In this document: piece after piece, positions 29,153 to 55,017 of the stretch
Layout: the number at the start of each line of letters is the position of its first letter
Position numbering within the stretch: position 1 is the stretch's first letter
NCBI GenBank assembly: GCA_038882715.1
Contig: JAVZNR010000004.1
Span: forward strand, 46,809-110,808
Direction of reading: 5' to 3'
Length of the DNA stretch: 64,000 nucleotides
DNA from: Candidatus Bathyarchaeia archaeon
Lineage (GTDB): Archaea; Thermoproteota; Bathyarchaeia; Bathyarchaeales; DTEX01
The notes under the pieces: model-generated
What the model was told of the DNA's origin: nothing
Seen by the model: the letters and a program-made list of their open reading frames with translations, nothing else
Database searches by the model: none
Translations under genes and position numbers: made by a program

Positions 29153-30229
29153 TTGTCGGAAAAGAAAAATAAGAGAATAGGTGATAGCATGGTTAAAATG
29201 CGGTTCGCTGTGATTCTCCCCTTCGGCGATATCTATGACACAAAGAACCTGATTCTCATGAGACAATTGGGCTGTACAGATGTTATAGGTCACGGGCCTC
29301 CAACGCCAAAAGGCTCGGAAGTCTGGGAGTACGGAGACATAGTCCAAATTAAGAGACATGTTGAAAGCTATGGTTTAAAGCTGGAGGTGCTTGAAGACGG
29401 CCCTCCGATAGAGAAGATAATATATAATCTGCCAGGAAAAGAGCAGCAGCTCGAAAACTTCTGTAAATCGTTAGAGAACTTGGGTAAGGCAGGTATAAAG
29501 GTTATAAAGCCGCAACATATGCCTCCGGTTCCAAACATGATTTGGAGGACTGAGATTGATAAGCCGACTAGAGGAGGGGCAACTTCAACAGCCTTCGATT
29601 ACAGCCTTGTTAAGGATATCCCGCCAACCGTTAGATTCGGCTCATATAGGGAAGAGGACATTTGGAAGAACCTTGAGTACTTCCTGAAGAATGTTGTTCC
29701 AACGGCCGAGGAAGCTGGCGTTGTAATAACGTTTCATCCGGATGACCCTCCAATATCTCCTATTCAAGGTTTTCCGCGAATACTTAGAAGCGTAGAAGCT
29801 TTCGATAAGCTACTCAATATTGTTCCTAGCGATAACGTTGGCGTATGTTTCTGCCAGGGATGTTTCGCGGAAATGGGAGTTGATGTTCCAGCAGCAATAA
29901 GGCATTTTGGTAGAAAAAAGAAAATTTTCTTTGCCCACTTTAGAAACGTTGTAGGTTCAGTACATGAGCCCGGCGGCTTTCAAGAAATCTTCCACGATGA
30001 TCCGGCTGGTAGAGTCGATATGTTTGAAGCCATGAAAGCCTACTATGAGGTTGGGTTTGAGGGGCCTATGAGACCTGACCATGCGCCAAAAACCATAGCT
30101 GACCTGCTCTTCGAATGTCTCCTTGGAGGGCACCCCGGATACTACATGATAGGAAAGGTTCTTGCCCTCGGATATATGAAGGGGCTTGCTGAAGCTATCG
30201 AGAAAACATTCTTTAAAGAAAAATATTAG
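29153..30229 (+). CDS. uxuA: D-mannonate dehydratase (UxuA family)
   Basis: Colinear with my recollection of E. coli UxuA: AEEAGV.I.FHPDDPP, GFPRI, FCQGC, IFFAHFRNV, MRPDHAP and HPGY...GK. The true start is probably the ATG at 29189 (MVKMRF...). Confidence 0.8.
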   Translation: MSEKKNKRIGDSMVKMRFAVILPFGDIYDTKNLILMRQLGCTDVIGHGPPTPKGSEVWEYGDIVQIKRHVESYGLKLEVLEDGPPIEKIIYNLPGKEQQLENFCKSLENLGKAGIKVIKPQHMPPVPNMIWRTEIDKPTRGGATSTAFDYSLVKDIPPTVRFGSYREEDIWKNLEYFLKNVVPTAEEAGVVITFHPDDPPISPIQGFPRILRSVEAFDKLLNIVPSDNVGVCFCQGCFAEMGVDVPAAIRHFGRKKKIFFAHFRNVVGSVHEPGGFQEIFHDDPAGRVDMFEAMKAYYEVGFEGPMRPDHAPKTIADLLFECLLGGHPGYYMIGKVLALGYMKGLAEAIEKTFFKEKY

Positions 30230-30263: not shown

Positions 30264-30959
30264 CTAGGAACGTTTTTCAAGGAATTTTTCCAATAGATCT
30301 GGTCTAGGTGGATAGGCCTCTCTTAAAGGTATTCCTGAAGCTATCATTCTTCTGATAGCGTCCTCTTTAATCTCAACCTCGCTAGCCTTCACAGCTATTT
30401 CTTTAGCCTTCTCCCTCGGTACGGCTATAACCCCGTCCGCATCGCCCATTATTATGTCCCCCGGCCTTATGTGAACCCCCGCACATACAATGTCGCCGTT
30501 AACTTTGTACGGTACAATTACACCTCCTATATGTTCAGGCGTTGTGTTCCTTGCAAACACGGGGAAATTAAGCTTCATTATATATGGGCTGTCCCTTATA
30601 CCTCCATCCGTAACTATGCCCGCGGCGCCTTTAACCTTAAAGCCGAATGTTATGCAGTCGCCGAATACCCCTACGTCGCTTCTGCCAAGTGCTGCCGCAA
30701 CTATTACTTCTCCGCCTCTAATTGAGTCATATGCCTCGTGAACAGCGTTTCCTTTAAATCCCTCTTTGCTTGCCTCTTCGTATGTTATATATTGTATCGT
30801 TAAAGCGGGACCTACAACCTTCATGTCGGGCAGCAAAGGTTTTACTCCAGAAAGCAGGTACCTGGCCCTTGATTCTCCTAAAAGACTGTAAGCTGTTGCG
30901 ACGGAAGCTCTGCTTAGCAACCTTAAAATTTCACTTAAATTAAGTTCTCCCTCAATCAC
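30264..30959 (-). CDS. RraA / HMG-CHA aldolase family protein (putative class II aldolase/decarboxylase)
   Basis: GEVIVAAALGRSDVGVFGDCITFGFKVKGAAGIVTDGGIRDS and GDADGVIAVP, typical of the RraA-like fold. Confidence 0.75.
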   Translation of the reverse strand: MIEGELNLSEILRLLSRASVATAYSLLGESRARYLLSGVKPLLPDMKVVGPALTIQYITYEEASKEGFKGNAVHEAYDSIRGGEVIVAAALGRSDVGVFGDCITFGFKVKGAAGIVTDGGIRDSPYIMKLNFPVFARNTTPEHIGGVIVPYKVNGDIVCAGVHIRPGDIIMGDADGVIAVPREKAKEIAVKASEVEIKEDAIRRMIASGIPLREAYPPRPDLLEKFLEKRS

Positions 30960-32947: not shown

Positions 32948-34036
32948 CTATTTTTCCGGCACATATATTTCTTCGTCAGGCCTAGGCAGCCTATTCTTAA
33001 CCGGTGGTAATGGAGGGCCTCCTCTTTTCGGCTCTGATAGGTAGTAGTAGGCTGTGCTCGAAATATCTAGGGTTAGGGTGTTTGCGTGGCCATGTTCAAT
33101 TGTCGCCTTTATGCTCTTATAAAATCTAATCGGATCTTCAATATAGTAGCGGTAAACGGTCTGCTTTCTCTTCCAAGGCCATCCTTTTGTTCCGCTATAC
33201 AGGATTACGCCATGATATGGGGCATTATATTCTTGTTGCGGGCCATAGGCGCAGTTAAACCAGTCCTCTGTTCCAGTTCCGTGGATTGATGGGGGCCACT
33301 CTTCGCCATCGATGAAAACCATGTCATCGCCTTCACCGTACCAATCATCTGGGTTCCGGACGAAGCAATCTATATCTAAATGTGCACCGCAGTATATGCC
33401 GTTCCCCTCAGCTTCAAGAATCACGTAGTTATGTTTGCCATCCCTATTATACCATCTGGGATCCCTCGTCATTGTCTGTGGGCTAAGCCTTTCTCTATAA
33501 GCCCATCCATCAGTATCCGCCTCTCGCCTCCATTGAACGTGAAAGTACGCTAAATCTTCGACATCTTTAATAGAGCTATAAATCTCATAGTCAATGTAGA
33601 AGTAATGCCAATATTCTTTTTCGCCTTGGTTTTCAACCTCTATAATAGCCCTATTTTTGAATGGCATAGGCCACCATGAATTAAATCCCTTTCCATCCTG
33701 AGGGCTCATTTGAAGCGGTAAAGAAACGAAGTTCTTCCGCATCCCATGGCCCATACCAAAGAAGTCTCCTATAGGGCACTCAATGCTCGGCTCAGGGCAA
33801 TTGTCCCAGTAGAACCTTAAAACTATCCTGCGTAGATAGTCTTCCTGCGGGATTCCAAGCGTCATCCAGATATGCTTAATGCACGCTGGCCCCTCAATGT
33901 CGGCTATAGTCTTTTTCTCACCTTCCCTAATCAACCAAGCATCCATGTTCCCTCCGGTCTTATCATAGCTTGAAATTCTGCGGCTTCTATAATTCCTTAA
34001 GCGGGGGAGAGAAGCTAGGCTTGAAAAACCTATCAT
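32948..34036 (-). CDS. DUF2961 / GH172-like glycoside hydrolase
   Basis: RSRRISSYDKTGGNMDAW...IADIEGPACIKHIWMT, GDFFG and EDWF, as I recall for the DUF2961 family. Confidence 0.7.
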   Translation of the reverse strand: MIGFSSLASLPRLRNYRSRRISSYDKTGGNMDAWLIREGEKKTIADIEGPACIKHIWMTLGIPQEDYLRRIVLRFYWDNCPEPSIECPIGDFFGMGHGMRKNFVSLPLQMSPQDGKGFNSWWPMPFKNRAIIEVENQGEKEYWHYFYIDYEIYSSIKDVEDLAYFHVQWRREADTDGWAYRERLSPQTMTRDPRWYNRDGKHNYVILEAEGNGIYCGAHLDIDCFVRNPDDWYGEGDDMVFIDGEEWPPSIHGTGTEDWFNCAYGPQQEYNAPYHGVILYSGTKGWPWKRKQTVYRYYIEDPIRFYKSIKATIEHGHANTLTLDISSTAYYYLSEPKRGGPPLPPVKNRLPRPDEEIYVPEK

Positions 34037-35774: not shown

Positions 35775-36452
35775 ATGCTAGAGCTGAAGATTGGTCATCG
35801 AGGCGCTAAAGCATATGAGCCTGAAAACACTATACGCAGTTTTAAAAGAGCCTTAGAGTTAGGCGTGAACGCTATTGAACTTGACGTGAGAAGAACCAAA
35901 GACGGTGAGTTAGTGGTTATCCATGACGCGGAAGTTGACAGAACAACGAGCGGTAAAGGATTAGTTAGCGAATTAACGCTCAGGGAGATCAAGGAGCTGT
36001 CTACTGAGAAAGGCGAAAAGATACCAACCTTAGAAGAAGCCCTTGATTTTCTCGACAGAAAAGTGAGAATACTTATAGAATTAAAGGAGATCGGAACAGA
36101 GGATAAAGTCCTAGAGATCGTTAGGAAGAGGGATTTAGAGGACAACGTGATAATAATCTCATTCCATGAGGAAGCCCTTAGAAGAATTAGAGAATTGAGT
36201 GATAGCGTCAAAACCGGTTTAATCTACGTGAAGCACAAAGATCCAATAAAAACTGCTCTATCGCTTAAGGCACAGTATCTGTTTCCAATGTATAGATTCG
36301 TCCACTCATCCTTCGTTAAAAAGGCCCATGAGAACGGCCTAAAAGTTGTTGTATGGACAATAAATACTCCGGAAGAAGCTCGGGAGTATGCCGAAAAAGG
36401 TGTTGATGGAATAGCTAGCGATAGGCCCGACATACTGAAAGACATAAAATAA
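35775..36452 (+). CDS. glycerophosphodiester phosphodiesterase
   Basis: IGHRGA...PENT, ELDVRRTKDGELVVIHD and VWTIN, the GDPD catalytic His/Glu/Asp pattern. Confidence 0.85.
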   Translation: MLELKIGHRGAKAYEPENTIRSFKRALELGVNAIELDVRRTKDGELVVIHDAEVDRTTSGKGLVSELTLREIKELSTEKGEKIPTLEEALDFLDRKVRILIELKEIGTEDKVLEIVRKRDLEDNVIIISFHEEALRRIRELSDSVKTGLIYVKHKDPIKTALSLKAQYLFPMYRFVHSSFVKKAHENGLKVVVWTINTPEEAREYAEKGVDGIASDRPDILKDIK

Positions 36453-36493: not shown

Positions 36494-39400
36494 TCAAGAG
36501 GGTTTAATTAGCAAAGTCTTTATTTCAAATGGATTGATCTGTAGCCTAATTTTATTATCGAGAGTTTCGAGAGGTCTTATTGGCTCCTCCATTAAATCCG
36601 CTTCATAAGCCTCCTTTACACTAAAACTAAATTGTATTTCCATCAGGCCTCCTTCGCCAGAAGCATCGTAAACCCTAACCACCAAGCTGTTTCCTTCCTC
36701 AGCCTCCTTAAAGCATGAAACGACTATGTTGCTTGGCTTAACGTTGATGAAGCTCATCTCCTCATCTGCGCTGCCATGCTCTCTCCGATCTGGAACCGCG
36801 TATGCTATTAGTGGATGGTTTAGCTCCCACCCTCTTCTAAATGTCAGCGCCCTCTTCCAATCGTTTTTATGCGGGTATAACGCGTAAGTTATTTCATGAA
36901 TTCCCTGATCAGGCTTAGGATCGGGACTATAGCTGGTTCTGACAAGCGTCATTCTCACAGTATTACCTTTCACATCGAACCCGTGCTTGCAGGTACTTAT
37001 TATGCTTAGACCATACTCGTCATCGGATAGATCAACCCATCTCAGCGCGGGATACTCGGTTCCATCCGGAACCCTTTCAATGTATCCAAAAGGTATCTCA
37101 AACGTGGCTTTAGACATGTTAAGCATGGGTGTATAGGAGACCTTAAGCATGGGAGCGTCAGTTTCATCATCCGCTAACTCCTGCCAATTAATTAGCATCC
37201 GGAGATCTATTCGAGGCAAACCGTTATAGAGACTTATATATTGGGTAATTTCAGAGTTGCTATGCTTCCAAGAGACCTTGATCGTAGCTCTTACTGGACC
37301 TTTCTCTATGACCTCTGTTTTAGCCCCCCTTATAAGATTCTCTACACGAGATATTGGCCCGATTATCCATGCCGACATTGGATGAGGCGTCTCATATAAA
37401 ATTTGCATTAAATTGCTGAATACGGGTTTAGTGTAGGGGTACCGCTCCTCCTTGAATACAAACCTTCCGTTCACCTTATCATACAGCGTTTTTATTGTGC
37501 CTGAACCCTCATTTATCTCGATCTTAAAGTGGTCGTTCTCAAGCAGATTATGTTGGACTAGTAAGCTTGAACTGTTTTCTTCAGTGGAAGGTTCTTCAAC
37601 TATATAATATACTTTGTAACCTAGTGGTGGAACGCTGGCTAAAAATAATAATTCATCTTCGTGGATCTGAATCGGTCGCCTTTCCTTACCATCATAAGAT
37701 ATTGCGACAGCATTCTTTGGAAGAAGATTCTTAGGAACCTTTACTCTCACTATATCTGTTCTATCCCAAGAAAGAGTGTTGAAGACGATTATGGGTATGC
37801 CAGCTCTCGAATACTTTATCTTTTTAGAGAAGTTCGTCACCTTAAGATCTATTAAGTTTTTGGCAGCTTCAAACGTTTCCTGATAGAGATTTATTGGGTA
37901 TATATATGCTTCAGGGCTTCCACTCCCATCAAGAATATCATGGAATTGGTTAAAGAGCATTTTTAACCATAAGCCCTTCAAATCACTCTTATCGCCGGAT
38001 CCGGTTATAGCGCATATTTTCTCAGCGTCAATGAGTAGAGATTCACACAGCCTATTATATTTTTTGACGTCGCCATGAGTAGTGTAGCATCCATCAAAAG
38101 TGAACTGTAGTTCATCATTAATGACTGGTATTAGTAAACCTCGATCTTCGATCTCTTTTCTAACTTCATTAAAGAATCTATGTGTTGAACTAAAAACTAA
38201 GTCTGGTAAGGTGGGTTTTTTCCGCATCTCATACGTGTTCTCGATATCTTCCACCATAGCTCCTCCACCGTGGTCGCCTGCGCCATAGACAAACATGCTG
38301 GTTTTAAGGCCGTAGCGCTCGTAGAGATCTAAAACTAGATCTATTATGTTTCTCGGAGCCACAAAATTATTATAAATGCTTGTGAAAGCTAAAACCCTTG
38401 ATCCGTCGGGCCCCTCCCACCAGAAAATAGGATGACCTTTACCACAGCGCATAAAATAGTAGTATTTTATACTGAATTTTCTTAAAATCTGTGGCAGGGT
38501 CCATATGTGGCCAAATGTATCCGGCTCCCAACAGACCTCAGTTTTCACATTAAATTTCTCGTAAACATAATGTTTTGCGTATAAGAATTGTCTCAGTAGT
38601 GCTTCAGTGCCAGCCATGTTTAAGTCCGCTTCAACCCACATAGATGCAGTTACATCCCAGTTACCCCTCGTAACATATTGCCTTATCCTCTCAAATAAAT
38701 CTGGGAAACTCTCTTCAACGGTCTTATAAGTTACCGCCTGGCTCTGCGAGAAGTGAAAATCGCCATATTTGTCCATTAGATTAACCATCGTGGAAAAAGT
38801 ATTTTTAATGGTGTTGAGCGTATCTTCCCAAGGCCAAAGCCAGTTCATATCTATGTGAGCATGAGCCACCAAATGAACCCTAAATTTTTTTGCCTCAGCA
38901 GAGAGAGGCGAAATCTCCCTTCGAACCTTATCAATCTCATTCAGCAGATGCTGAAAACTTCCTTCAATGGCGCTAAGATCGAATTTTTCCAATATTTTAT
39001 CTGTAAAATCTTTGTTTAAAACCCTTGCGAATCTAATTTCTTCTATGAAAGACTCTATTTCAAACGCTATCTTTTCAATGTTGCTATAGGTCACGTAGAA
39101 TTGCGGTACATGGATTGGTTCATGCTTCGGAAATAAATGTATCGCTACAACATAGGTTTTTCCAGACTCTGTTCTCTCGTCTAAAATTACTCTTGGTCTG
39201 AGCTCCAGCCAATAGTCTGCACTTAAAACACGTCGCCCGTCAACGAACACCTCGCTTTTACCGAGTATTGCTGATGAATGAAGTTTTACAACAGATCCCG
39301 GAACCTCTATTCCATCAATTTTTTCTGGGACAGTTATTTTACATCTAAGCCACCCTTCACCTTTCCGAGCATCAAATACCATAGGTAACTTAGCTTGCTG

Positions 39401-39592
39401 CCATCGTGAATCATCAAAGTTGGGATCATAGGCTTCTAGGGCTTCACCTTGATAAAATTTCCAGGAAAGCTGGCTTCTGTACCCAGTTAAACTCTCGTAT
39501 CTTCTCCTTAAACCATCAACGATTTTTTCAAACGTTCCCTTGCTGTTATTCAGCGATGACCCTTCCTTCACGTGTTTTAGGGGGCAATTCAT
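36494..39592 (-). CDS. GH38 alpha-mannosidase
   Basis: 1032 aa with VAHAHIDMNWLW, PDTFGH and the QFHDILDGS context, all typical of GH38. Its ATG overlaps the upstream gene's TGA (ATGA at 39589..39592). Confidence 0.9.
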   Translation of the reverse strand: MNCPLKHVKEGSSLNNSKGTFEKIVDGLRRRYESLTGYRSQLSWKFYQGEALEAYDPNFDDSRWQQAKLPMVFDARKGEGWLRCKITVPEKIDGIEVPGSVVKLHSSAILGKSEVFVDGRRVLSADYWLELRPRVILDERTESGKTYVVAIHLFPKHEPIHVPQFYVTYSNIEKIAFEIESFIEEIRFARVLNKDFTDKILEKFDLSAIEGSFQHLLNEIDKVRREISPLSAEAKKFRVHLVAHAHIDMNWLWPWEDTLNTIKNTFSTMVNLMDKYGDFHFSQSQAVTYKTVEESFPDLFERIRQYVTRGNWDVTASMWVEADLNMAGTEALLRQFLYAKHYVYEKFNVKTEVCWEPDTFGHIWTLPQILRKFSIKYYYFMRCGKGHPIFWWEGPDGSRVLAFTSIYNNFVAPRNIIDLVLDLYERYGLKTSMFVYGAGDHGGGAMVEDIENTYEMRKKPTLPDLVFSSTHRFFNEVRKEIEDRGLLIPVINDELQFTFDGCYTTHGDVKKYNRLCESLLIDAEKICAITGSGDKSDLKGLWLKMLFNQFHDILDGSGSPEAYIYPINLYQETFEAAKNLIDLKVTNFSKKIKYSRAGIPIIVFNTLSWDRTDIVRVKVPKNLLPKNAVAISYDGKERRPIQIHEDELLFLASVPPLGYKVYYIVEEPSTEENSSSLLVQHNLLENDHFKIEINEGSGTIKTLYDKVNGRFVFKEERYPYTKPVFSNLMQILYETPHPMSAWIIGPISRVENLIRGAKTEVIEKGPVRATIKVSWKHSNSEITQYISLYNGLPRIDLRMLINWQELADDETDAPMLKVSYTPMLNMSKATFEIPFGYIERVPDGTEYPALRWVDLSDDEYGLSIISTCKHGFDVKGNTVRMTLVRTSYSPDPKPDQGIHEITYALYPHKNDWKRALTFRRGWELNHPLIAYAVPDRREHGSADEEMSFINVKPSNIVVSCFKEAEEGNSLVVRVYDASGEGGLMEIQFSFSVKEAYEADLMEEPIRPLETLDNKIRLQINPFEIKTLLIKPS

Positions 39593-40791
39593 TCAGGGAC
39601 ATTTATCCATCTGCCTTTCTCTGCGGAATCTAGTATTGCCTCCATAACCTCTTGGCACTTTAATCCATCATAGAAGGTTGCGCCTAAAGGTGCAATCGGC
39701 TTATCGTTAACTACGCAATCTATGAAGTGATGGATCTCATGGACAAATGTGTGCTCCCATCCAATTATGTGGCCGTGAGGCCACCAGTATTCGATATATG
39801 GATGAACGGTCTCCGTGACCAAGATATTTCTGAAACCCATTCTATCTGCAGGGTCTTTTCTCGAATATACTTCTAGCTCGTTTAGTCTCTCAAGGTTAAA
39901 GCATATTGTGCCCTCTGTGCCATGAATTTCTATTCTCTGGTAGTTTTTCCTTCCAGCGCAGAACCTTGAAGCCTCTAAGCTGCCTATCGCCCCATTCTTA
40001 AATCTGACAAGTGAGATGAAGGCGTCATCGACATCAACCTGCCCTTTCTTTGATGGGTCTTCTGGCAATGGACGTTCTTTAATAAATGTCTCCGTCATAC
40101 CGCAGACAGAGGAAATTTCCCCGATAAGGAACCTGGCCAAATCTATTATGTGTGAGCCTAAGTCCCCTAGGGCTCCTGCCCCCGCTACATCCTTACGAAG
40201 TCTCCAAACAAGTGGGAAATTGGGATCCATAATCCACTCCTGAAGGTAAACAGCTCTAAACTGTAGAATCTTTCCAATGTAACCCTCATCGATAAGTCTT
40301 TTAGATAATCTTATTGCCGGAACAAATCGGTAGTTGAAAGCCGTCATGTGTTTGACCCCGGCCTTCTCAGCCGCCCTATACATTTCTTCAGCTTCTTTCA
40401 CGGTGGTTGCCAGAGGTTTTTCGCAAAGAACATGCTTCCCACTTTCAGCAGCTTCGATAATTGGAGGGGCATGCATATTGTTCGGCAATCCGTTGTCCAC
40501 TATCTCAACGTTTTCGTCTTTAATCAGCGCCCTCCAGTCAGTATAATATTTCTCGAACCCATATCTTTTAGCGGCCTCAGCAACAGCTTTCTCAGTCCTT
40601 CCAAATATTGCTACTAATCTTGGCTTCGCAGGGGGAGGATAGAAGAATATTGGCATCTTTATATACGCGTTTGCGTGAGCTTTACCCATAAATGCGTAGC
40701 CAAGTAAGCCTACGCCTATCTCCTTAATCTCCTTCACTTCGCCTGCAACCTTACCCATCCTTACGAAACCTACTTCCTTCTCCTCAGGCAT
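39589..40791 (-). CDS. Gfo/Idh/MocA family NAD(P)-dependent oxidoreductase
   Basis: Rossmann-type N-terminus IGVGLLGYAFMGKAH, the GFO family motif LCEKPLA, and a C-terminal alpha/beta dimerisation domain. Confidence 0.85.
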   Translation of the reverse strand: MPEEKEVGFVRMGKVAGEVKEIKEIGVGLLGYAFMGKAHANAYIKMPIFFYPPPAKPRLVAIFGRTEKAVAEAAKRYGFEKYYTDWRALIKDENVEIVDNGLPNNMHAPPIIEAAESGKHVLCEKPLATTVKEAEEMYRAAEKAGVKHMTAFNYRFVPAIRLSKRLIDEGYIGKILQFRAVYLQEWIMDPNFPLVWRLRKDVAGAGALGDLGSHIIDLARFLIGEISSVCGMTETFIKERPLPEDPSKKGQVDVDDAFISLVRFKNGAIGSLEASRFCAGRKNYQRIEIHGTEGTICFNLERLNELEVYSRKDPADRMGFRNILVTETVHPYIEYWWPHGHIIGWEHTFVHEIHHFIDCVVNDKPIAPLGATFYDGLKCQEVMEAILDSAEKGRWINVPE

Positions 40792-40798
40792 CGCTATC

Positions 40799-41761
40799 TC
40801 ACCACCAAACCTTCTCTAATGGAGCTTTGATGATTAAAGGCTTTAAGAAAGCTATACATTTCTCGCAGCCATCTTCCCTGCTCATAACCGGATCTTCATG
40901 CTCATAGCTTAATACATAATCGTATCCAACCTCAACAAAAGCCGTCAATATCCTTTTCCAGTTCACGTCGCCCCAGCCGACGACACGAAATCTAAAACCT
41001 CTATCCGGTCTACGCCATGAGCCGGTAGGTATGCAACCAGATATTGGAAGATTCTCTTTAACAAGCTCAGCGTCTTTTGCGTGCGCATGGTAAATCCTGT
41101 CACCGAATTTTTTGATGAACACTACTGGATCAATGCCCTGCCAGACAAGATGGCTCGGGTCAAAATTAAAGCCGAACTCTTTCTTACCGTTTATGGCTTT
41201 AATCGCTCGTTCGGCTGTCTCAATATTATAAGCCTGCTCCTGCGGGTGAACTTCATGCGCGAACTTTACGCCGTGAGCCGCAAAATGATCTAGGATTTCT
41301 CCCCAGCGCTCAGCGAAAACCTCAAATCCCCTCTCAAAAATCTTCTCGTATGCTGGCGGAAAGATATACCATGCGCCCCAGTTTGGAGCCCCAATAAAAC
41401 CGTTTACTACAGGGACATCTAGAGCTGCGGCGGCTTCGGCCGTCTTCTTCATGCGCTCCACACCGTACTTAACTTTTTCCTCAGGGGTCCCCTTAAACCA
41501 TTCATCGGTCGACTCGTCGTGAGGGCCTAAAACAAGTTGTCCCTCGAGATGGTTGCTCAATGCTGAAATCATTAGACCATATTTCTCCACGGTCCTCTTG
41601 TATTCGGATGCGCCTCCACTAAGAATCTTCTCTATATTTATGTGATTGCTTCCTTTCCAAGCGGCTATCTCTACAGCCTCATAGCCAAGCTTTGAGACGT
41701 ATTCTAAGACTTTCTCGAGACTTAGCTCGTTGAACAGTATTGTGAATATACCTATCTTCAA
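40799..41761 (-). CDS. xylose-isomerase-like TIM barrel ('sugar phosphate isomerase/epimerase' family)
   Basis: GYEAVEI, HEVHP, NFDPSHL, YHAHAKD and SYEHED, the metal-ligand pattern of the AP-endonuclease-2/xylose-isomerase fold. It ends 7 nt upstream of the GFO gene. Confidence 0.85.
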   Translation of the reverse strand: MKIGIFTILFNELSLEKVLEYVSKLGYEAVEIAAWKGSNHINIEKILSGGASEYKRTVEKYGLMISALSNHLEGQLVLGPHDESTDEWFKGTPEEKVKYGVERMKKTAEAAAALDVPVVNGFIGAPNWGAWYIFPPAYEKIFERGFEVFAERWGEILDHFAAHGVKFAHEVHPQEQAYNIETAERAIKAINGKKEFGFNFDPSHLVWQGIDPVVFIKKFGDRIYHAHAKDAELVKENLPISGCIPTGSWRRPDRGFRFRVVGWGDVNWKRILTAFVEVGYDYVLSYEHEDPVMSREDGCEKCIAFLKPLIIKAPLEKVWW

Positions 41762-41821
41762 ATTAAACCCCCCATTCTGACAAAAATATTTATGCTGAAT
41801 GCTAATAAATATCTTTGGGAA

Positions 41822-42052
41822 CTAAAGATCGTCAACATCGGTAGCTTCTTCCTCTTCCTGTTTTTCATAGTTTTTCTCTAAGTAGTATCTTCTCGTTCTT
41901 ATATCGCAGCCGATTTTACCTTCCTCAAAGAGTTTACGCAGAGACCTAAAGACGGCTTTAGGCGCCTTATTTAATTTCTCAGCTATCTCCATTAGAGTTA
42001 AAGGTTCAGACTCCTTTAGAAGGCTTAAGATTTCATCTTCCAGTTTACCCAT
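41822..42052 (-). CDS. small winged-helix protein with acidic tail; candidate local regulator
   Basis: 76 aa, ILSLLKESEPLTLMEIAEKLNKAPKAVFRSLRKLFEEGKI. It sits at the head of the TIM-GFO-GH38 gene string and is divergent from the GFO gene at 42174. Confidence 0.5.
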   Translation of the reverse strand: MGKLEDEILSLLKESEPLTLMEIAEKLNKAPKAVFRSLRKLFEEGKIGCDIRTRRYYLEKNYEKQEEEEATDVDDL

Positions 42053-42173: not shown

Positions 42174-43319
42174 ATGGAAAAAATAAATATTGCATTAATA
42201 GGATGCGGTGGAATATCTAATGCGCACATTGGAGGGCTCCGCGCCCTAAGCACATCGGGACTAAAGATCTTTAACGTAAAAGCGGTATGTGACGTTGCTG
42301 AGAAAAACGCTGAAGAGAAGGCTAATTTAATCCATTATTTCCAGGATTCTAAACCGAGAGTCTACACAGATATCGATAGAATGCTTAGGGAAGAGAGCCT
42401 CGACGCTGTAGACATATGTTTACCGCACAACATACATCATACGGTAGCTTCTCAATGTTTAGAGAGAGGGCTACATGTAATTATCGAGAAGCCACTAGCG
42501 ATAACCATGAGGGCTGCAAAACGTATCATTGATGAAGCATCGAAACATAATAAGGTGCTGGCTGTCGCAGAGAATTATAGAAGAGCGCAAAAAGAGAGAG
42601 CTTTCTGGTGGGCTATAAGAGAAGGGCTGATCGGCGAGCCACGTATCGTCCTATGGTCTGCCATGAGCTGGGGTCCTAAGCCATGGGGCTGGAGAGAAGA
42701 TAAGTTTTCCGCTGGTGGAAGCTGGGTTTTTGATGGAGGTGTACATTGGGCGGATCTAGATAGATATCAGCTTGGTAGGGAGGCGATAGAAGTTTTCGCC
42801 ATGTGCCATACTTTTGACCCGGTTAAGGAGAATGTGAAAGTGACGGTTGACGACATGACCATAGCGATAATAAGATATGAAGGAAATGTTTTTTCTCAGT
42901 GGATCTGGACACGGGCAACGCCAGCTAAAAGGATCTACATGCACACCATATGTGGCTCAAAGGGAAACCTTTCAGATGATGGTATTCACCTGGAAACAGA
43001 ATATGGAAAAATTGAAACTAAATCTATAGATACGCTTGTAGAAGAGATGCGGAGAAACCTTCCTAAAGAAACCTTGGAGAAACTTTTCCCAAGAGGGATA
43101 ACTGATACATTTGCCATCGAGTTATACGATTTCTACGACTCGGTGGTCAGCAAAGGAAAACCTGAAGTTGACGCGATTGAAGCGTATAAAGACATGGCGA
43201 TACCTTTAGGCTTTTACGAGTCGGCCAAGCTAAACAAACCTGTCAGAGTTAAAGATGTTGAGGATTTACTCGTTGAAGAGTATCAGAAGGAGATAAATGA
43301 GAAACTCTCAATAACGTAA
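42174..43319 (+). CDS. Gfo/Idh/MocA family oxidoreductase
   Basis: INIALIGCGGISNAH and IIEKPLA, with a C-terminal GFO domain. Confidence 0.85.
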   Translation: MEKINIALIGCGGISNAHIGGLRALSTSGLKIFNVKAVCDVAEKNAEEKANLIHYFQDSKPRVYTDIDRMLREESLDAVDICLPHNIHHTVASQCLERGLHVIIEKPLAITMRAAKRIIDEASKHNKVLAVAENYRRAQKERAFWWAIREGLIGEPRIVLWSAMSWGPKPWGWREDKFSAGGSWVFDGGVHWADLDRYQLGREAIEVFAMCHTFDPVKENVKVTVDDMTIAIIRYEGNVFSQWIWTRATPAKRIYMHTICGSKGNLSDDGIHLETEYGKIETKSIDTLVEEMRRNLPKETLEKLFPRGITDTFAIELYDFYDSVVSKGKPEVDAIEAYKDMAIPLGFYESAKLNKPVRVKDVEDLLVEEYQKEINEKLSIT

Positions 43320-43372: not shown

Positions 43373-44578
43373 TTGCTCTCATTATTTTATCGTTGTTCTC
43401 AACTTTTTATACTTGAGGGAAAGTTAAGATACAAGCGTCCTAGAATTATATTTTTGGTGAAAATATTGGGAAAATGCTCAGTATGCGGCATTAGCTCGCC
43501 TCTAGTTTCCAGTAATCTAGGCGTATGCTCAAAATGCATAAAGGAGAAGCCAGAGGAAGCCCTAAAGGTGGTTAGCAGGGTACGCGAGGTTTCACGCAGA
43601 TCATTTAATCTACCATCAAGTGTACCAAAAAGCCCGGAAGGCGTAAAGTGTGGAATGTGCAGAAATGAATGCGCCATTCCTTCTGGAGAAAAAGGATTCT
43701 GCGGTCTCTCATATAATGTTGAAGGCTCCCTCACACGTCTAGGTGGAACGCCGGAGAAAGGTATTTTAGAATGGTACTATGACCCTTTGCCGACGAACTG
43801 CGTAGCATGGTGGTTTTGTCCTGGCTGCACAGGCGCTGGCTATCCGAAGTACGCTTATAAGCCAACTGCCGAGACTGGCTATATGAATCTCGCCGTCTTC
43901 TATGGTGCATGTAGCCTAGATTGCCTCTTCTGCCAAAACTGGCATTACAGAACTCTCTCTCAGAGACTAAGTCCCTATTTAAGCTGTGAGGAGTTAGCTG
44001 ACAAAGTTAATAGCAGGGTCTCATGCATATGCTTCTTTGGCGGAGACCCATCGGTTCAAATGCCCCATGCGTTAAAAACCAGCGAGATAGCGCTAAAAAA
44101 GGCTGAGGATGGAAAACGTATATTGAGGATATGTTGGGAAACAAATGGAAACATGAGTAAAAGTTTTGCTATTAAAGCAGCTGAATTATCGTTCAGGAGC
44201 GGCGGCATCGTAAAGTATGATCTAAAAGCATGGGACGAAAACATTTACAAAGCTCTATGCGGAGCCTCAAACAAGCCTTCCTTTGAAAATTTCAGAACTA
44301 TAGGCGAAAAGTACTTTAGGGAAAGACCGGAAGTCCCTGTTTTAACAGCAAGTACCCTTCTTATCCCAGGCTACATAGATCCCTCGGATGTTGAGGAGAT
44401 AGCTAAGTTTATTGCGAGCGTAGACCCAGATATCCCGTATACTCTGCTCGCGTTCTATCCGCAATACGTTATGAGCGACCTGCCAACTACAAGTAGAAAA
44501 CAAGCTTATGACTGCTATAACGCGGCGAAAAGATATCTTAGAAAAGTGAATATAGGAAATATTCATCTGCTCTCTTAG
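43373..44578 (+). CDS. radical SAM enzyme of the PflA / AmmeMemoRadiSam-like (COG1180-type) class with N-terminal Cys-rich region
   Basis: CSLDCLFCQNWHY (CxxxCxxC followed by QNW), upstream CGMCRNEC...FCG and a CSVCG...CSKC ribbon. There is no Cys-rich SPASM-type C-terminus. The start is uncertain (TTG in the ORF track). Confidence 0.75.
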   Translation: MLSLFYRCSQLFILEGKLRYKRPRIIFLVKILGKCSVCGISSPLVSSNLGVCSKCIKEKPEEALKVVSRVREVSRRSFNLPSSVPKSPEGVKCGMCRNECAIPSGEKGFCGLSYNVEGSLTRLGGTPEKGILEWYYDPLPTNCVAWWFCPGCTGAGYPKYAYKPTAETGYMNLAVFYGACSLDCLFCQNWHYRTLSQRLSPYLSCEELADKVNSRVSCICFFGGDPSVQMPHALKTSEIALKKAEDGKRILRICWETNGNMSKSFAIKAAELSFRSGGIVKYDLKAWDENIYKALCGASNKPSFENFRTIGEKYFRERPEVPVLTASTLLIPGYIDPSDVEEIAKFIASVDPDIPYTLLAFYPQYVMSDLPTTSRKQAYDCYNAAKRYLRKVNIGNIHLLS

Positions 44579-46740: not shown

Positions 46741-47796
46741 TTAAAAATTGCTTTTCATGCTCTCTACAAGCTCTTTTTCTCCTCTTTCCTCAAAGAATCT
46801 CATCGCAGTGTCGACGTTTACTTTTCTTGGTTGTTTCCCCCAAAGTCTCTTAAAGTTCTCTGAATATATTTTCCTTAAAGTGTTCACTGGCAGTTTTAAA
46901 CCTATAAACGGTTCTTTATACCTTGTCAGTAATTCGTCCGCTGTTTCCGGAGTAAAGAACTCTTCATCCGACTCTAGGAATTTCCTAACTATCCATATTC
47001 TAGCGACCGCTTCGACCTCCGTCTGCCACGTTGCAATATCTGTTCCAAAAAATATTCTGTCCTGATATTTTATGAAGAAGTCTCTCCAATCATCCCTCCT
47101 ACGCGAAATATTATATATGAGCTCTATTCCCGGAGTTAAATCAAGGTTAGCATTCTTATGGCGGTTAAGAAAGTCGGCTGCCTCTTCAAGATTCGCTGAC
47201 ATAAAGTAGAAGTGACATAGAACTATCTTCAAGCGTGGATGCCTATCTAGGATATCTTCCATCTCCCTATAGAGCTCCTCCTTCAACGGGTAGTCTCCGC
47301 CATAGTAAACCCAACCCCTTTTCTTAGCCCATTCTGGAGCTAGATTTTCATCCCAGAACTCTTCTGGGTCGGCAACATGGCATAAGACTGGAAAACCGTA
47401 GGATTCGCAAGCACCCCAAAAACCCTCATAGTACCCGCTGTTCAGCGGCACATGTATCCTTTTTGGAACCGGCTTCGAACCCATTTCTCCGACGCCGTCA
47501 AAACCTGCTTCGATTAAAGAGCGAATGTAGTTGTCCCAGTTGACATTAGGCATGCTACCTGTGCCGCCTGACCAAGGCACAAACCCACCAGCATAAAATA
47601 AGCCAGGGTACTTTAACTTCAAATATATTCCAGCATCACCTCCAGTTACATAAATCTTGTTGAGTCTGCCTTCTTCAGCCACTTTAACCATAAACTCAGC
47701 CATTCTCTTCAGGTTCGCGTTATTGCGCCAGTCATCAAAATGGACGTGGCAGTCGATAACAGGTAGATCGGCAAACTCGGATAAATATGGATGCAA
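46741..47796 (-). CDS. amidohydrolase-superfamily TIM-barrel metal hydrolase (Amidohydro_2-like; lactonase/decarboxylase/isomerase type)
   Basis: VIDCHVHF (HxH), VLCHV, VLCHFY and FFGTD, the ligand order of the amidohydrolase fold. Confidence 0.7.
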   Translation of the reverse strand: MHPYLSEFADLPVIDCHVHFDDWRNNANLKRMAEFMVKVAEEGRLNKIYVTGGDAGIYLKLKYPGLFYAGGFVPWSGGTGSMPNVNWDNYIRSLIEAGFDGVGEMGSKPVPKRIHVPLNSGYYEGFWGACESYGFPVLCHVADPEEFWDENLAPEWAKKRGWVYYGGDYPLKEELYREMEDILDRHPRLKIVLCHFYFMSANLEEAADFLNRHKNANLDLTPGIELIYNISRRRDDWRDFFIKYQDRIFFGTDIATWQTEVEAVARIWIVRKFLESDEEFFTPETADELLTRYKEPFIGLKLPVNTLRKIYSENFKRLWGKQPRKVNVDTAMRFFEERGEKELVESMKSNF

Positions 47797-47905
47797 GACT
47801 TTTTCGCCTCCATTAAACTAAAACACCCCTTAATCTTAAAGGGGCGCTCCGAATATAAAATGCTTAATACTCATAATTAATTATTTTAGAATCAGAGTCA
47901 ATTTA

Positions 47906-48832
47906 ATGTTGCTTACGGTTGTGGTGATGTATTTGATGAGAATCGGAATAATTGGTTTTGATACTTCTCACGCTGTAGAATTTACGAAGCGCATAAACCA
48001 CATAGGTATATCTGAGGACCATTGGGTCTACGGCGCGAAAGTAACAGTAGGTTGCCCCTGCGGACCCTCAAGTTTTGCCAGCGAAGATATAATTGCGCAG
48101 AGAACGCAAGCTCTCAGGGAATTTGGCGTTGAAATAGTAGATTCTCCCGAAGAAGTTATTGGTAAAGTTGATGCAATTATGATAGAGCTACAGGAGGGTG
48201 ATTTACATTTGAAGATCGTTGAGCCCTTCCTAGAGGCAGGCATACCCTCATTCATAGATAAGCCGCTCGCATGCAGCGTAGCTGATGCAAAAAAGATTTT
48301 TGAATTAGCCCATCTTTATAATACTCCAGTCTTCTCATCATCGTCGCTTCGCTATGCTCCTGAGGTTCAGGAACTAAAGTCTAGGGAAGACTTAGGTAAG
48401 GTTTTAGGAGCCGAGACATATTCGCCCGCAATCCTAAATCCAAAGAACCCTGGGCTCTTCAATTACGGCATTCATGGTATAGAGATGCTATACACTATTA
48501 TGGGAAATGGCTGTAAGTCAGTTAGATGCGTCCATAAAGAGGGGTGGGATGTCGTCATCGGCACATGGCATGACGACCGAATAGGAATTTTCAGAGGGAT
48601 ACGAAAAGGTCCGCATGTCTACGGCTTCACAGCTTTTTGCGAGAGAGATGTGGTCTCCTCCAGCATAAACACACAATACATTTATAGGGAACTGTTAAAG
48701 AGGGTTATTGAAATGTTTAAAACGCGTAAAATGCCAGTAACTCCGGAGGAGACCATTGAAATTATCGCTTTTATTGAAGCAGCATTAAAGTCTGCTGAAA
48801 GAAAGTCCAGAGAAATAGCGTTGCGTTTTTAA
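47906..48832 (+). CDS. GFO-like oxidoreductase (divergent)
   Basis: MRIGIIGFDTSHAVEF and FIDKPLA. The probable true start is the ATG at 47936. Confidence 0.6.
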   Translation: MLLTVVVMYLMRIGIIGFDTSHAVEFTKRINHIGISEDHWVYGAKVTVGCPCGPSSFASEDIIAQRTQALREFGVEIVDSPEEVIGKVDAIMIELQEGDLHLKIVEPFLEAGIPSFIDKPLACSVADAKKIFELAHLYNTPVFSSSSLRYAPEVQELKSREDLGKVLGAETYSPAILNPKNPGLFNYGIHGIEMLYTIMGNGCKSVRCVHKEGWDVVIGTWHDDRIGIFRGIRKGPHVYGFTAFCERDVVSSSINTQYIYRELLKRVIEMFKTRKMPVTPEETIEIIAFIEAALKSAERKSREIALRF

Positions 48833-48895
48833 AACCCTTAATAATTTGATTTGAGCTCTATAAACATATTTACTTAGCCTTAGATAGTAACAGAT

Positions 48896-50263
48896 ATGGA
48901 GTCAAACGTAAATATTAGGGAGATATCTCTGAGCTACGTATCCTATAATTTTAGAACCCCGCTGAAATTCGGCTCAGTTATCGTTAATGAATCGGTTTCT
49001 CTGATCGCTAAAGTTCTAGTTAAGAGGAAGGGGGGTGGTGAAGCTGAAGGCATCGGGTCTATGCCCCTCATGTGCGAATGGGCTTTTCCAGATCCAAAAG
49101 TAGAGCACGAAGATAAGCTTGAAGCAATGAAACTCGTAGCTGAAAAGTACGCTGAGACTATAGAGGAAGAGTCCGGCAGCGGCATTTATCTACATCCTAT
49201 AGATTGGTTCATGAGGTTTGAGGATGAAATATTAAGGATAACTCATTATGTTTCTGAAAGTTTTAAGCTAAAGGCTCCTTTGCCAGTCTTAGCGTCTCTA
49301 GTGGCGGTATCACCTATAGATGCTGCTATTCACGATGGTTTTGGTAAAGTCAACAATATATGTAGCTATGATGGTTACGGACCCAAGTATATGGAGAGAG
49401 ATTTAAGCTATTATCTCGGATCAAAATTTAGGGGCAAATATATTTCTGATTATATAAAGCCAAGATACGAGGAAAAGATACCGGTTTTCCATCTCGTTGG
49501 AGGGCTAGATAAGCTCACTAAAGATGAGATAAGTCCCGAGGATCCTAAGGATGGTTTCCCTGTCAGCCTAGAAGAATGGATCGAGAGGGATGGCGTCTTC
49601 TGCTTTAAAATAAAGCTAAATGGCGTAGATATAGATTGGGATGTGGAGAGAACTAAGACTGTAGCTAGAATCGCCGAAGAAAAACTTGAGGAGAAGTTCG
49701 GCAGAAATGAATACTTTCTTTCGGTTGACTCAAATGAAATGCATAAATCACCTGATGATGTTCTTGAGTATCTTAGAAGAATTAAGAGGGAAGCCCCGGA
49801 CGTTTTTGAGAGGATACTTTACATAGAGCAGCCGGTCAACAGAGATCTAGAGAAATATAGGTTTAATATGATGTTGGTGTCAGCGATTAAGCCGGTGTTG
49901 GCTGATGAGGGAGTCATCAATATAGGCAGCTTCGACTTGGCCTTAAGCCTAGGATGGTCTGGCGTGGCTCTAAAAACTTGTAAATGTCATAGCTCAGCCC
50001 TGCTACTAATGGCTAAAGCCGAAGAGGCTGGAGTCCCCTACAGCGTTCAAGATTTAACGTGTTCAGGCTTAGCCTTAGTGCATTCGGCTGGTTTTGCTTC
50101 TAGGATAAACCCCATAAAAGGATTTGAATATAATGCTAGGCAGTATCTTCCACTAGCTTTCCCAGAGGTTCAGGGAAAATATGAGGAGTTGTTTAATGTT
50201 AGAAATGGTTTTATAAGGACGGGTATACTTAATGGGTCTCTTGGTTTAGGTTTATCACTTTAG
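48896..50263 (+). CDS. enolase-superfamily protein, MLE-subgroup-like residue set
   Basis: K238-x-K240 (FKIKLNG), D278 (SVDSNE), E311 (YIEQP), D337 (LADEG) and K360/K363 (ALKTCKC), with spacing as in MLE/dipeptide-epimerase type enzymes. The N-terminal capping region is long (~230 aa). Confidence 0.65.
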   Translation: MESNVNIREISLSYVSYNFRTPLKFGSVIVNESVSLIAKVLVKRKGGGEAEGIGSMPLMCEWAFPDPKVEHEDKLEAMKLVAEKYAETIEEESGSGIYLHPIDWFMRFEDEILRITHYVSESFKLKAPLPVLASLVAVSPIDAAIHDGFGKVNNICSYDGYGPKYMERDLSYYLGSKFRGKYISDYIKPRYEEKIPVFHLVGGLDKLTKDEISPEDPKDGFPVSLEEWIERDGVFCFKIKLNGVDIDWDVERTKTVARIAEEKLEEKFGRNEYFLSVDSNEMHKSPDDVLEYLRRIKREAPDVFERILYIEQPVNRDLEKYRFNMMLVSAIKPVLADEGVINIGSFDLALSLGWSGVALKTCKCHSSALLLMAKAEEAGVPYSVQDLTCSGLALVHSAGFASRINPIKGFEYNARQYLPLAFPEVQGKYEELFNVRNGFIRTGILNGSLGLGLSL

Positions 50264-50275
50264 AGGTGTTCATCT

Positions 50276-51301: not shown

Positions 51302-51330
51302 TGGCATTTTTAGGGAGGTGATCTACAGTA

Positions 51331-52134
51331 ATGATGCTCGTATTATTTTCTAAAATGTTTCAGTCAATGCCCATGGAAAGGTTCGCGGATCTCGCAGCCA
51401 ATATGGGTTTCGAGGGAATCGATTTAACAGTTAGGCCAGAAGGGTATATAGAGCCTAGAGATGTGCCGGAAAAACTTCCTGAAGCCATAAGAATATTTGA
51501 AGGAAAGGGGTTAAGCGTGCCCATGATAACGACATCTATAACATCGGCGGATGAACCATATGCTGAAGAAACTTTCTCTACCGCGTCAAACATGGGAATA
51601 AAATATATTAAGCTCGGATACTGGAGGTATAGGGGTTTCGGTAACATTAGAAAGCAGATTGAGGAAGTTCGTGGAAAACTTAAAGGAATCGAAAAACTCT
51701 GCGAAAACTACGGGGTGACTGCCGGATTACATATACACTCAGGCATGTTTGCAACAGCTGAGCCAGCAATAGTATATCTTATGCTTAATGGATTCGAGCC
51801 AAAGTATATTGGCGCATATATAGACCCCGGTCATATGGCTGTTGAAGGCGGACTTGCGGGGTGGCTGATGGGCATGGATATCCTCTCTGATAGAATAGTC
51901 ATGGTCGCTGTGAAGGATTTCGGCTGGTTTAAGACTAGTCAGGGATGGGTTGCAAATACTGTTCCTCTTGGTGAAGGGTTAGTTCCTTGGAAAGAAGTTT
52001 TTAAAATACTTAAAGACATAAAATTTCATGGTCCAATATCGCTTCACAGCGAGTACCATGAAAGTCTTGAGAGGATAATAGAGATCACTAGAAGAGACTT
52101 AGCATATGTGAAGCACATTCTCAACAAATTATGA
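51331..52134 (+). CDS. xylose-isomerase-like TIM barrel protein
   Basis: GFEGIDL, GLHIHSG, IDPGH and LHSEY. Confidence 0.75.
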   Translation: MMLVLFSKMFQSMPMERFADLAANMGFEGIDLTVRPEGYIEPRDVPEKLPEAIRIFEGKGLSVPMITTSITSADEPYAEETFSTASNMGIKYIKLGYWRYRGFGNIRKQIEEVRGKLKGIEKLCENYGVTAGLHIHSGMFATAEPAIVYLMLNGFEPKYIGAYIDPGHMAVEGGLAGWLMGMDILSDRIVMVAVKDFGWFKTSQGWVANTVPLGEGLVPWKEVFKILKDIKFHGPISLHSEYHESLERIIEITRRDLAYVKHILNKL

Positions 52135-52153
52135 GCTCGGGGAGATGGATTGA

Positions 52154-54892: not shown

Positions 54893-55017
54893 GTATTCGG
54901 AGATGATTTCACCTCCGATGTTTCATCTCTCCATTCCATATTCGCCTTGAAAAATAACTTGAATTGTGCTTATTGCGGCGAGAAATCATGTTTGGCTTCA
55001 CCATTCATTCGTAATTT

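Follow-up and report, generated by a model that had tools for sequence, protein, structure and literature searches.

A conserved pair of an LgdA-like dehydrogenase and a xylose-isomerase-fold protein beside a GH38 alpha-mannosidase gene in a Bathyarchaeia genome

In the bacterial levoglucosan (1,6-anhydroglucose) pathway LgdA-LgdB1-LgdB2/LgdB3-LgdC, described from Bacillus smithii and Paenarthrobacter (PMC7676230; PMC10066097), LgdA oxidizes C3, elimination by LgdB1 and hydration by LgdB2 follow, and LgdC carries out the reduction (PMC7676230). LgdB2 alone, given Mn2+, converts 3-keto-levoglucosan to 3-keto-glucose (PMC7676230); LgdA may catalyze both oxidation and reduction, and LgdB1 is encoded near 253 of 265 LgdA genes (PMC10066097). 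The analogy between such redox-neutral oxidation, elimination, hydration, and reduction and the NAD-dependent glycosidases was drawn by Kuritani et al. (PMC7676230). A second described system, the GlycDH-AtOGE-AtHYD-Gfo operon of Agrobacterium tumefaciens, carries out 3-keto-O-glycoside cleavage (PMC10628242; PDB 8BVK, 8RO4), with AtHYD hydrating 2-hydroxy-3-keto-glucal and working together with a Gfo reductase (PMC10628242). The pairing of an oxidoreductase of the Gfo/Idh/MocA family (GFO) with a TIM-barrel protein is thus already known, from LgdA and its neighboring TIM-barrel enzymes (PMC7676230; PMC10066097; PMC10628242). Here we describe an archaeal two-gene form, an uncharacterized variant of this known oxidative sugar-cleavage chemistry, in a 64,000-nt stretch of DNA from a Candidatus Bathyarchaeia archaeon (GenBank assembly GCA_038882715.1, contig JAVZNR010000004.1, positions 46,809 to 110,808; hereafter, the window). 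In the window, the pair is followed by a gene for a glycoside hydrolase family 38 (GH38) alpha-mannosidase.

The open reading frame (ORF) listing and the sequence reproduce the layout given in the initial annotation, with all four genes on the minus strand. A small winged helix-turn-helix (wHTH) regulator of 76 amino acids (aa) (41822..42052; ArsR/MarR/HTH_24-like by Pfam HTH_5/MarR/HTH_24) is followed, after a gap of 60 nt, by a long xylose-isomerase-fold barrel of 320 aa with a TTG start (hereafter, TIM; 40799..41761; Pfam AP_endonuc_2) and, 7 nt further on, by the 400-aa GFO (39589..40791). The last gene encodes the 1032-aa GH38 (36494..39592), whose candidate ATG overlaps the GFO stop codon TGA as ATGA at 39589..39592. 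The family assignments made earlier for all four products agree with our Pfam search. We consider it probable that the functional unit consists of wHTH, TIM, and GFO, as a minimal two-enzyme variant of the oxidize-eliminate-hydrate logic of LgdA/B1/B2/C, and that GH38 is simply a neighbor. Adjacency in one genome and a 4-nt overlap are insufficient for a pathway claim, and it is the comparative context that shows where the unit ends.

Placement of the paired enzymes

The GFO resembles an LgdA-like, NAD-dependent sugar dehydrogenase. It aligns over its full length with the NCBIfam levoglucosan dehydrogenase model NF052479 (435.6 bits, below the equivalog cutoff of 650), and in a PDB sequence search it matches the crystal structure of levoglucosan dehydrogenase (LGDH; PDB 6A3F) with an E-value of 4e-112. 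Identity to three LgdA orthologs (6A3F, Arthrobacter agilis LgdA, and Metabacillus LgdA) is 46%–47%, under the >60% criterion for LgdA orthologs (PMC10066097). The EKP (CEKPLA) and GD..H (GALGDLGSH) catalytic motifs are retained and align with those of LGDH, in which E103 and H193 are the proposed catalytic Glu and His (PMC10066097). PDB 5YA8 is a more distant match (E 5e-57). Other assignments were considered and set aside: IolG (141.8 bits vs. an NCBIfam cutoff of 355), Gfo6 xylose dehydrogenase (97.7 bits, far under its cutoff), and, for GFO and TIM alike, the BT2158/BT2159 glycoside 3-dehydrogenases and UDP-GlcNAc 3-dehydrogenase, all with scores far under the NCBIfam cutoffs.

For the TIM, the best PDB sequence matches are 2ZDS (4e-60, 39% identity) and 8RO4, which is AtHYD (5e-28, 28% identity). 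An AlphaFold2 model of the protein (pLDDT 87.9) gave the same two structures in Foldseek, 2ZDS with a TM-score of 0.92 (6e-29) and AtHYD with 0.86 (5e-24); the next best match was at ~1e-14, and other TIM barrels, including IolE and sugar epimerases, were ~10 orders of magnitude weaker in E-value. Residues E170, D201, H204, E287, and E289 are conserved, and E170, D201, H227 (Asp in 2ZDS), and E287 are candidate metal ligands.

As references for the TIM-barrel proteins of lgd loci we used plasmids of Arthrobacter agilis and Metabacillus dongyingensis, which substitute for the B. smithii LgdB1/LgdB2, and their TIMs were typed as LgdB1, LgdB2, or LgdB3 by size, locus position, and taxon. The A. 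agilis pAAG24-80 locus, with an LgdA 87% identical to 6A3F, encodes a ROK protein, ATP-binding cassette (ABC) transporter genes, and an LgdC-like GFO, together with a 274-aa TIM, LgdA, and a 332-aa TIM. On the M. dongyingensis plasmid (LgdA 72%), one TIM of 322 aa accompanies a GFO and another of 273 aa lies beside LgdA. Compared with these, the window TIM is 39% identical to the long Arthrobacter protein (332 aa, 3e-65) and 35% to the long Metabacillus protein (322 aa, 3e-57), whereas its match to the Arthrobacter LgdB1-type protein is marginal (28% over 132 aa, E 2e-10). Because it resembles the long lgd TIMs over its full length and the LgdB1-type protein only marginally, the TIM is placed by sequence and fold prediction in the long PF01261 group (~320–335 aa) of LgdB2, LgdB3, AtHYD, and 2ZDS, not with LgdB1. 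LgdB1 itself, the 3-keto-levoglucosan beta-eliminase of ~275 aa, was rejected as an identity for this 320-aa protein, given the partial alignment at 28%, as was IolE (40.8 bits vs. an NCBIfam cutoff of 290). The TIM is accordingly best described as a putative metal-dependent 3-keto-glycal hydratase or beta-eliminase of the LgdB2/LgdB3/AtHYD type.

The closest solved structure, 2ZDS, is that of SCO6571 from Streptomyces coelicolor, determined by structural genomics, and we found no function for it in the literature searched. The A. agilis long TIM is 71% identical to 2ZDS, which places 2ZDS in the LgdB3-type group. Characterizing the archaeal pair would give a function to the 2ZDS family, and it would also extend oxidative sugar or glycoside cleavage to archaea.

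Several features set the locus apart from the described systems. As in the levoglucosan pathway, a GFO with the catalytic Glu and His motifs directly adjoins a ~320-aa PF01261 TIM that is 35%–39% identical to the long lgd TIMs, and the pair might be expected to follow the same logic of oxidation, elimination, hydration, and reduction. Unlike that pathway, the pair has no LgdB1, LgdC, or dedicated ABC transporter alongside, scores below the ortholog thresholds, has TIM ahead of GFO and a small wHTH in place of a ROK/LacI regulator, and occurs in a thermophilic archaeal host. In common with the A. tumefaciens operon, whose Gfo enzyme reduces 3-keto-glucose, the locus combines a Gfo oxidoreductase with a barrel of the AtHYD fold subgroup (26%–28% identity, E 5e-24 to 5e-28). 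Here, however, the GFO is LgdA-like and presumably oxidizes by itself, and there is neither an FAD-dependent GlycDH nor an AtOGE-type eliminase (the TIM matches 8BVK only at 3e-4). The likeness to NAD-dependent glycosidases of the GH4/GH109 type is one of mechanism, with the steps split here over two proteins; the pair has no sequence relationship to the single-polypeptide GH4. Like IolG/IolE, it joins GFO and PF01261 TIM superfamily members side by side, but NCBIfam scores fall far below the cutoffs, and IolE is only a distant structural neighbor of the TIM. The chemistry proposed in the initial annotation for a GFO with a xylose-isomerase-fold partner, namely oxidation followed by elimination or hydration, thus gains support from the homology to LgdA and to LgdB2/LgdB3/AtHYD.

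Conservation and upstream region of the pair

Two sets of loci were compared, one anchored on the TIM (species-dereplicated genomes; the best 80 of 576 matches, 97%–52% identity) and one on the GH38 (metagenome loci; the best 80 of 170 matches, 78%–35% identity). Individual loci are cited below by number (L001 and so on), and some metagenome loci duplicate genome loci (L008/L094, L012/L092). Neighbors were clustered after crude longest-ORF calling, which recovered the TIM itself in 64 of 80 loci, so that all neighbor counts are lower bounds. The nearest genome is a hot-spring metagenome-assembled genome, JAWBZG010000001 (L012).

An LgdA-like GFO (at least 45% identity) lies no more than 600 nt from the TIM in 40 of the 62 TIM-anchored loci that extend at least 1.5 kb to either side; in 39 of the 40 it is on the same strand, and the median gap between the two genes is 17.5 nt. 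The identities of TIM and GFO to their window counterparts co-vary (Spearman rho 0.93, n=50). In archaea and bacteria alike, TIM and GFO thus stay close together and are inherited jointly. The archaeal hosts of the 80 TIM loci include Bathyarchaeia, Nitrososphaerota, Thermoproteota, Marsarchaeota, and Brockarchaeota, and the bacterial hosts include Thermotogae, Dictyoglomota, Atribacterota, Spirochaetota, Chloroflexota, Actinomycetota, and Desulfobacterales, among others. All loci with GFO homologs at 74%–81% identity (L001–L007, L010) have TIM-GFO, usually with a wHTH in front; the genes 3' of wHTH-TIM-GFO vary (methyltransferase, rpS30e, hypotheticals, zinc-dependent alcohol dehydrogenase [Zn-ADH]). 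The pairs of Thermotogae (L034, L035, L038) and Dictyoglomota (L037) are 67%–74% (TIM) and 62%–65% (GFO) identical to the archaeal pair, and because these thermophilic-bacterial copies are closer than many archaeal ones, transfer between the domains among thermophiles is suggested.

The gene content of these loci bears on whether the pair could be a bona fide archaeal levoglucosan utilization system. The best family match of the GFO is indeed levoglucosan dehydrogenase, and the TIM has relatives among the long lgd TIMs. However, a search of the window and the 80 TIM loci found no gene of LgdB1 type at 35% identity or more, although LgdB1 is so regular a companion of LgdA, and the same search gave no LgdC-type gene. 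The partner GFOs across the 80 loci are all similarly remote from LGDH (46%–50% identity), and the score and identity of the window GFO fall short of both the model cutoff and the ortholog criterion. We regard true levoglucosan use as very improbable. The absence of LgdB1 and LgdC, together with the distance of the GFOs from LGDH, instead makes the pair a sister module of the levoglucosan system. What makes it of interest is that a pair so strongly conserved (TIM 55%–97% identity, from Bathyarchaeia to Actinomycetota and Chloroflexi) is widespread without LgdB1 and LgdC partners.

In bacteria, the neighbors of the pair include an FGGY kinase (14 loci), Zn-ADH (13), an old yellow enzyme (OYE) flavoenzyme (11), ribose-type ABC components (10 and 7), and a DeoC/LacD aldolase (9), which points to a small imported sugar as the substrate. 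These same neighbors raise the alternative that TIM-GFO is an IolG/IolE-like pair for catabolism of a free cyclitol, polyol, or monosaccharide, feeding a kinase and aldolase with no glycosidic or anhydro bond being cleaved. The L010 pair, flanked by genes for an FGGY kinase, ribulose-phosphate 3-epimerase, and Zn-ADH, would suit such a role, as would the weaker matches to IolG, IolE, and the scyllo-inositol dehydrogenase 5YA8. We nevertheless think this alternative unlikely: the Iol scores are far below their cutoffs and far below the score against the LgdA model, the TIM is nearest to AtHYD and the long lgd TIMs with IolE worse by ~10 orders of magnitude in E-value, and ABC transporters and Zn-ADHs occur in genuine lgd loci as well. 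In Chloroflexota, Spirochaetota, and Desulfobacterales (L070–L087; e.g., L074, L083, L084, L086) the TIM occurs with an OYE-type ene-reductase, FGGY kinase, Zn-ADH, and DeoC/LacD aldolase, with or without an adjacent GFO. Those loci would suit conversion of the enone (glycal) formed after C3 oxidation and elimination: reduction to a deoxy-keto sugar, then phosphorylation and cleavage by the aldolase. We found no characterized case of such a route.

In most Bathyarchaeia loci, a wHTH homolog lies directly upstream of the TIM on the same strand. The 60-nt spacer between them (41762..41821) has a B recognition element (BRE)/TATA-like element, AAAGATATTTATTAG, at 41816..41802 and a G-rich Shine-Dalgarno (SD)-like motif. 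In an alignment of 10 relatives the element is conserved (an AAA..A.ATTTAT motif stands ~45 nt upstream of the TIM start in all ten), as are the TTG start and a GGAGGGT-type SD-like motif 5–8 nt before it. Together, the conserved TTG, SD-like motif, and BRE/TATA-like box suggest that TIM-GFO has a promoter of its own, a function that we infer for the spacer element by alignment. (Statements on promoters and terminators here and below derive from aligned AT-rich boxes and T-runs.) The wHTH gene in turn is preceded by an AGGAGGT SD-like motif and a TTTAAA TATA-like box.

Linkage of GH38 to the pair

GH38 is an ordinary cytosolic alpha-mannosidase of the Man2C1/Ams1 type by its sequence features. 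It has the four GH38 domains (N, middle, C, and C2; PF01074 at 5e-60, PF09261, PF07748, and PF17677), with GH38N beginning at residue 239, after an N-terminal extension of ~235 aa, and its best PDB matches are Ams1 (6LZ1, 1e-78), 5JM0, and 7UFS. The motifs HAHIDMNW, EPDTFGH, and NQFHDILDGS are all present, and we take them to supply the metal-binding His/Asp, the nucleophile Asp, and the distal metal-binding His, respectively. No signal peptide is found (N-terminus MNCPLKHVKEG...). Domains, extension, motifs, and the missing signal peptide are all shared with the Man2C1/Ams1 structures, from which it differs in being archaeal. Assignment as the mannosylglycerate hydrolase MngB was rejected (119.1 bits vs. 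the NF007331 cutoff of 1138).

The initial annotation suggested that GH38, GFO, and TIM may form a fixed unit acting on one substrate class, with conservation of the triad in other genomes as the check. Seen from either anchor, GH38 accompanies the pair only in one narrow clade, and the junction is variable even there. Of the 42 TIM-anchored loci flanked by 5 kb on each side, two have a GH38 (L012, L014), and the truncated L013 is a further case; the TIM in these three is at least 92% identical to that of the window, and at least 91% throughout the GH38-bearing clade. Conversely, 53 GH38-anchored loci extend at least 1.5 kb upstream, and five of them have an LgdA-like GFO; these are all among the seven with GH38 identity of at least 62%, and at the 46 loci below 62% the pair is absent. 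Even at 68% GH38 identity, two loci (L096, L098) have no TIM-GFO in the 4–8 kb upstream. Around the GFO homologs at 74%–81% identity (L001–L007, L010) no GH38 was found, and it lies 3' of the pair in the closest relatives only (L008, GFO ~90% identical; L009, 85%). Other GH38 genes are accompanied by URO-D-like genes, a RhaA-like isomerase, SufBD, or a major facilitator superfamily transporter, with no constant partner. TIM-GFO and GH38 are each widespread without the other, and beyond the clade the triad is for the most part not conserved. GH38 is therefore a lineage-specific downstream neighbor in one narrow hot-spring Bathyarchaeia clade, outside the conserved unit.

Within the clade, the ATGA overlap of the window, which the initial annotation read as a sign of probably coupled translation, is not conserved. 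The GFO–GH38 junction is an 11-nt gap in L012/L092, an overlapping GTG in L095, a 59-nt AT-rich spacer with T-runs in L116, and a 104-nt spacer with a T5 run and then TATA-like sequence in L008/L094; in L009, L013, L014, and L138 it is ~1.5 kb long and holds an extra GFO gene of 347 aa. (The extra GFO, 10796..11839 in L009, is 24%–28% identical to the window GFO.) It seems that sugar-metabolism genes tend to accumulate at this junction.

In the window itself, the overlap depends on the start codon. The in-frame candidates are the ATG (39592) and a GTG at codon 8 (39571..39569), 17 nt past the GFO stop, and the use of the latter would replace the 4-nt overlap by a 17-nt gap. In L012, a TAA just upstream closes the frame and forces the start to the GTG that aligns with codon 8 of the window (as seen in the alignment with L012/L092), and conservation among GH38 homologs begins only at about residue 18–20. 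Neither start is preceded by an SD-like motif, whereas wHTH, TIM, and GFO each have one. Whichever start is used, GFO and GH38 are tightly packed, so the co-transcription claimed earlier is plausible in this genome. With the spacer reduced to a 4-nt overlap, GH38 is probably co-transcribed by read-through from the TIM-GFO promoter.

GH38 is also less conserved than its surroundings. Among clade relatives it is 64%–78% identical to the window copy, against 91%–97% for TIM, 85%–95% for GFO, 79%–91% for a glycerophosphodiester phosphodiesterase (GDPD), and 85%–92% for a GH172 protein. In the comparison with L012/L092, the values are 78% for GH38 and 97%, 95%, 92%, and 91% for TIM, GFO, GH172, and GDPD. 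Either GH38 evolves unusually fast or it has been replaced by recombination; it is intact in all but one of the clade contigs, where it is frameshifted. The GDPD gene (35775..36452, plus strand; Pfam GDPD), convergent with GH38, is found downstream of GH38 also in L093, L096, and L097, of which L096 lacks TIM-GFO; GDPD thus travels with GH38 further than TIM-GFO does.

Could the clade nonetheless have a genuine three-enzyme pathway, in which GH38 and the pair act on one imported glycan or glycoside and fusion of the operon was selected for co-expression? Hydrolysis of alpha-mannose might be combined with oxidative cleavage of another linkage, or the pair might process the released sugar. In its favor, GFO and GH38 share a strand and are closely packed or overlapping in the window, L012/L092, and L095; their adjacency was kept in ~7 lineages while GH38 diverged to 64%; and the region is rich in carbohydrate genes (GH172, GH29, GH57, UxuA, ABC transporters). 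Against this, there is no linkage beyond the one narrow clade from either the TIM or the GH38 anchor; six of nine relatives have a T-run/TATA-like spacer or an inserted gene between GFO and GH38; synteny in other Bathyarchaeia breaks exactly after GFO; and the closest characterized relative of the GFO uses a gluco-configured anhydrosugar, not mannose. We rate such a pathway as quite unlikely. A more specific and still more doubtful version would make wHTH-TIM-GFO a minimal redox-neutral “split glycosidase” of thermophilic Bathyarchaeia, with an LgdA-like 3-dehydrogenase, a hydratase, and a beta-elimination that the TIM catalyzes or that proceeds spontaneously in the heat; in the hot-spring clade it would be fused into one transcript with GH38, and hydrolytic and oxidative deglycosylation would cooperate on one imported glycan. 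If true, oxidative glycoside cleavage would be seen here for the first time in archaea, and for the first time in combination with a classical glycoside hydrolase. Nothing indicates a substrate shared by GH38 and the pair.

Proposed chemistry and other genes of the window

Under the reading that we prefer, with wHTH, TIM, and GFO as the unit, the promoter in the wHTH-TIM spacer would drive TIM-GFO, with the wHTH presumably as its regulator. The GFO would act first, oxidizing C3 of a small imported sugar, either an anhydrosugar or a glycoside. Substrate class and position are predictions from homology and gene context, and the sub-cutoff score and the specificity of 5YA8 limit the prediction of C3. 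The C1 substituent might then leave by beta-elimination, either catalyzed by the TIM or spontaneously at high temperature, and the TIM would hydrate the resulting 2-hydroxy-3-keto-glycal. Re-reduction of the keto-sugar, possibly by the same GFO, would make the cleavage redox-neutral overall. GH38 would have become a downstream neighbor of this cassette in the one hot-spring Bathyarchaeia clade.

A number of observations weigh against this scheme. The GFO scores under the NCBIfam equivalog cutoff and is only 46% identical to LgdA, and its relative 5YA8 oxidizes scyllo-inositol and L-glucose. The pair lacks an LgdB1-type eliminase and an LgdC-type reductase, which leaves two steps of the cycle with no dedicated enzyme. 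The FGGY kinase, Zn-ADH, OYE, DeoC/LacD aldolase, and ribose-type ABC components beside the bacterial relatives could fit a route for a free monosaccharide or polyol instead of glycoside cleavage. Finally, throughout the clade (~7 distinct lineages, with GH38 identity down to 64%) GH38 is always downstream and on the same strand, and its adjacency may to some extent have been retained by selection.

The window also contains genes that have to be considered for a different idea, based on the non-phosphorylative option of the initial annotation, that the GFO beside GH38 is an aldose 1-dehydrogenase starting non-phosphorylative oxidation of mannose. The GFO family has such enzymes (the Gfo6 xylose dehydrogenase model being one), and 6–9 kb from GH38 lie a UxuA-type D-mannonate dehydratase (29153..30229, plus strand) and, convergent with it, a RraA-like aldolase (30264..30959, minus strand), which may form a downstream route for mannose-derived sugar acids. 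However, the GFO is much nearer to the C3-acting LgdA than to C1 dehydrogenases, and the protein invariably paired with it is a TIM of the hydratase type rather than a lactonase or dehydratase. Elsewhere in the window, a cluster looks better suited to such a route, and it would be surprising if the GFO beside GH38 had this role. That cluster (46741..53170, mostly plus strand) encodes an Amidohydro_2 protein (lactonase-like), two GFOs, a dehydratase of the enolase superfamily (MR_MLE), a TIM barrel, and a D-2-hydroxyacid dehydrogenase, and it adjoins Opp-type ABC transporter genes (53921..58898, minus strand). It reads like an oxidative, non-phosphorylative sugar route, for which it is a better candidate than the GFO beside GH38.

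It should be noted that at least four GFO-family genes and four to five xylose-isomerase-fold genes occur among the ~58 genes of the window, so that finding any gene next to a GFO or TIM is not improbable by chance. One of these is a second, distantly related GFO (42174..43319, plus strand; Pfam), divergent from wHTH. It is 26%–28% identical to LgdA and 26%–27% to LgdC-like GFOs, and beyond the window it is confined to the nearest relatives, L012 having a homolog. Also divergent from wHTH is a radical SAM gene (43373..44578, plus strand; Pfam Radical_SAM), with weak similarity to AmmeMemoRadiSam/PFL-activase proteins. A homolog lies upstream and divergent in many Bathyarchaeia, including L001–L003, L008, L009, L012–L014, L016, L017, L019–L021, L024, and L025; it could be linked to the wHTH-TIM-GFO unit or be merely syntenic.

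Elsewhere in the window are genes for Trm1 and the archaeal ribosomal proteins L3/L4/L2, which mark the DNA as archaeal. The GH172 gene (DUF2961; 32948..34036, minus strand) is syntenic with the GH38-GDPD block in L009, L092, L095, L097, and L116; its family, as we understand it, includes difructose-dianhydride synthases/hydrolases, which are also anhydrosugar-related. In a GH29 alpha-L-fucosidase gene (18711..20156, minus strand), an in-frame TAA at 19253..19251 separates two ORFs (19251..20156 and 18711..19220). The stop stands in the context ...CRKSWG*IKDHDYKP..., at a place where enzymes of this family usually have the Tyr of an SWGY motif. This looks like a single-base nonsense mutation (a pseudogene, or a sequencing or strain variant) rather than a frameshift.

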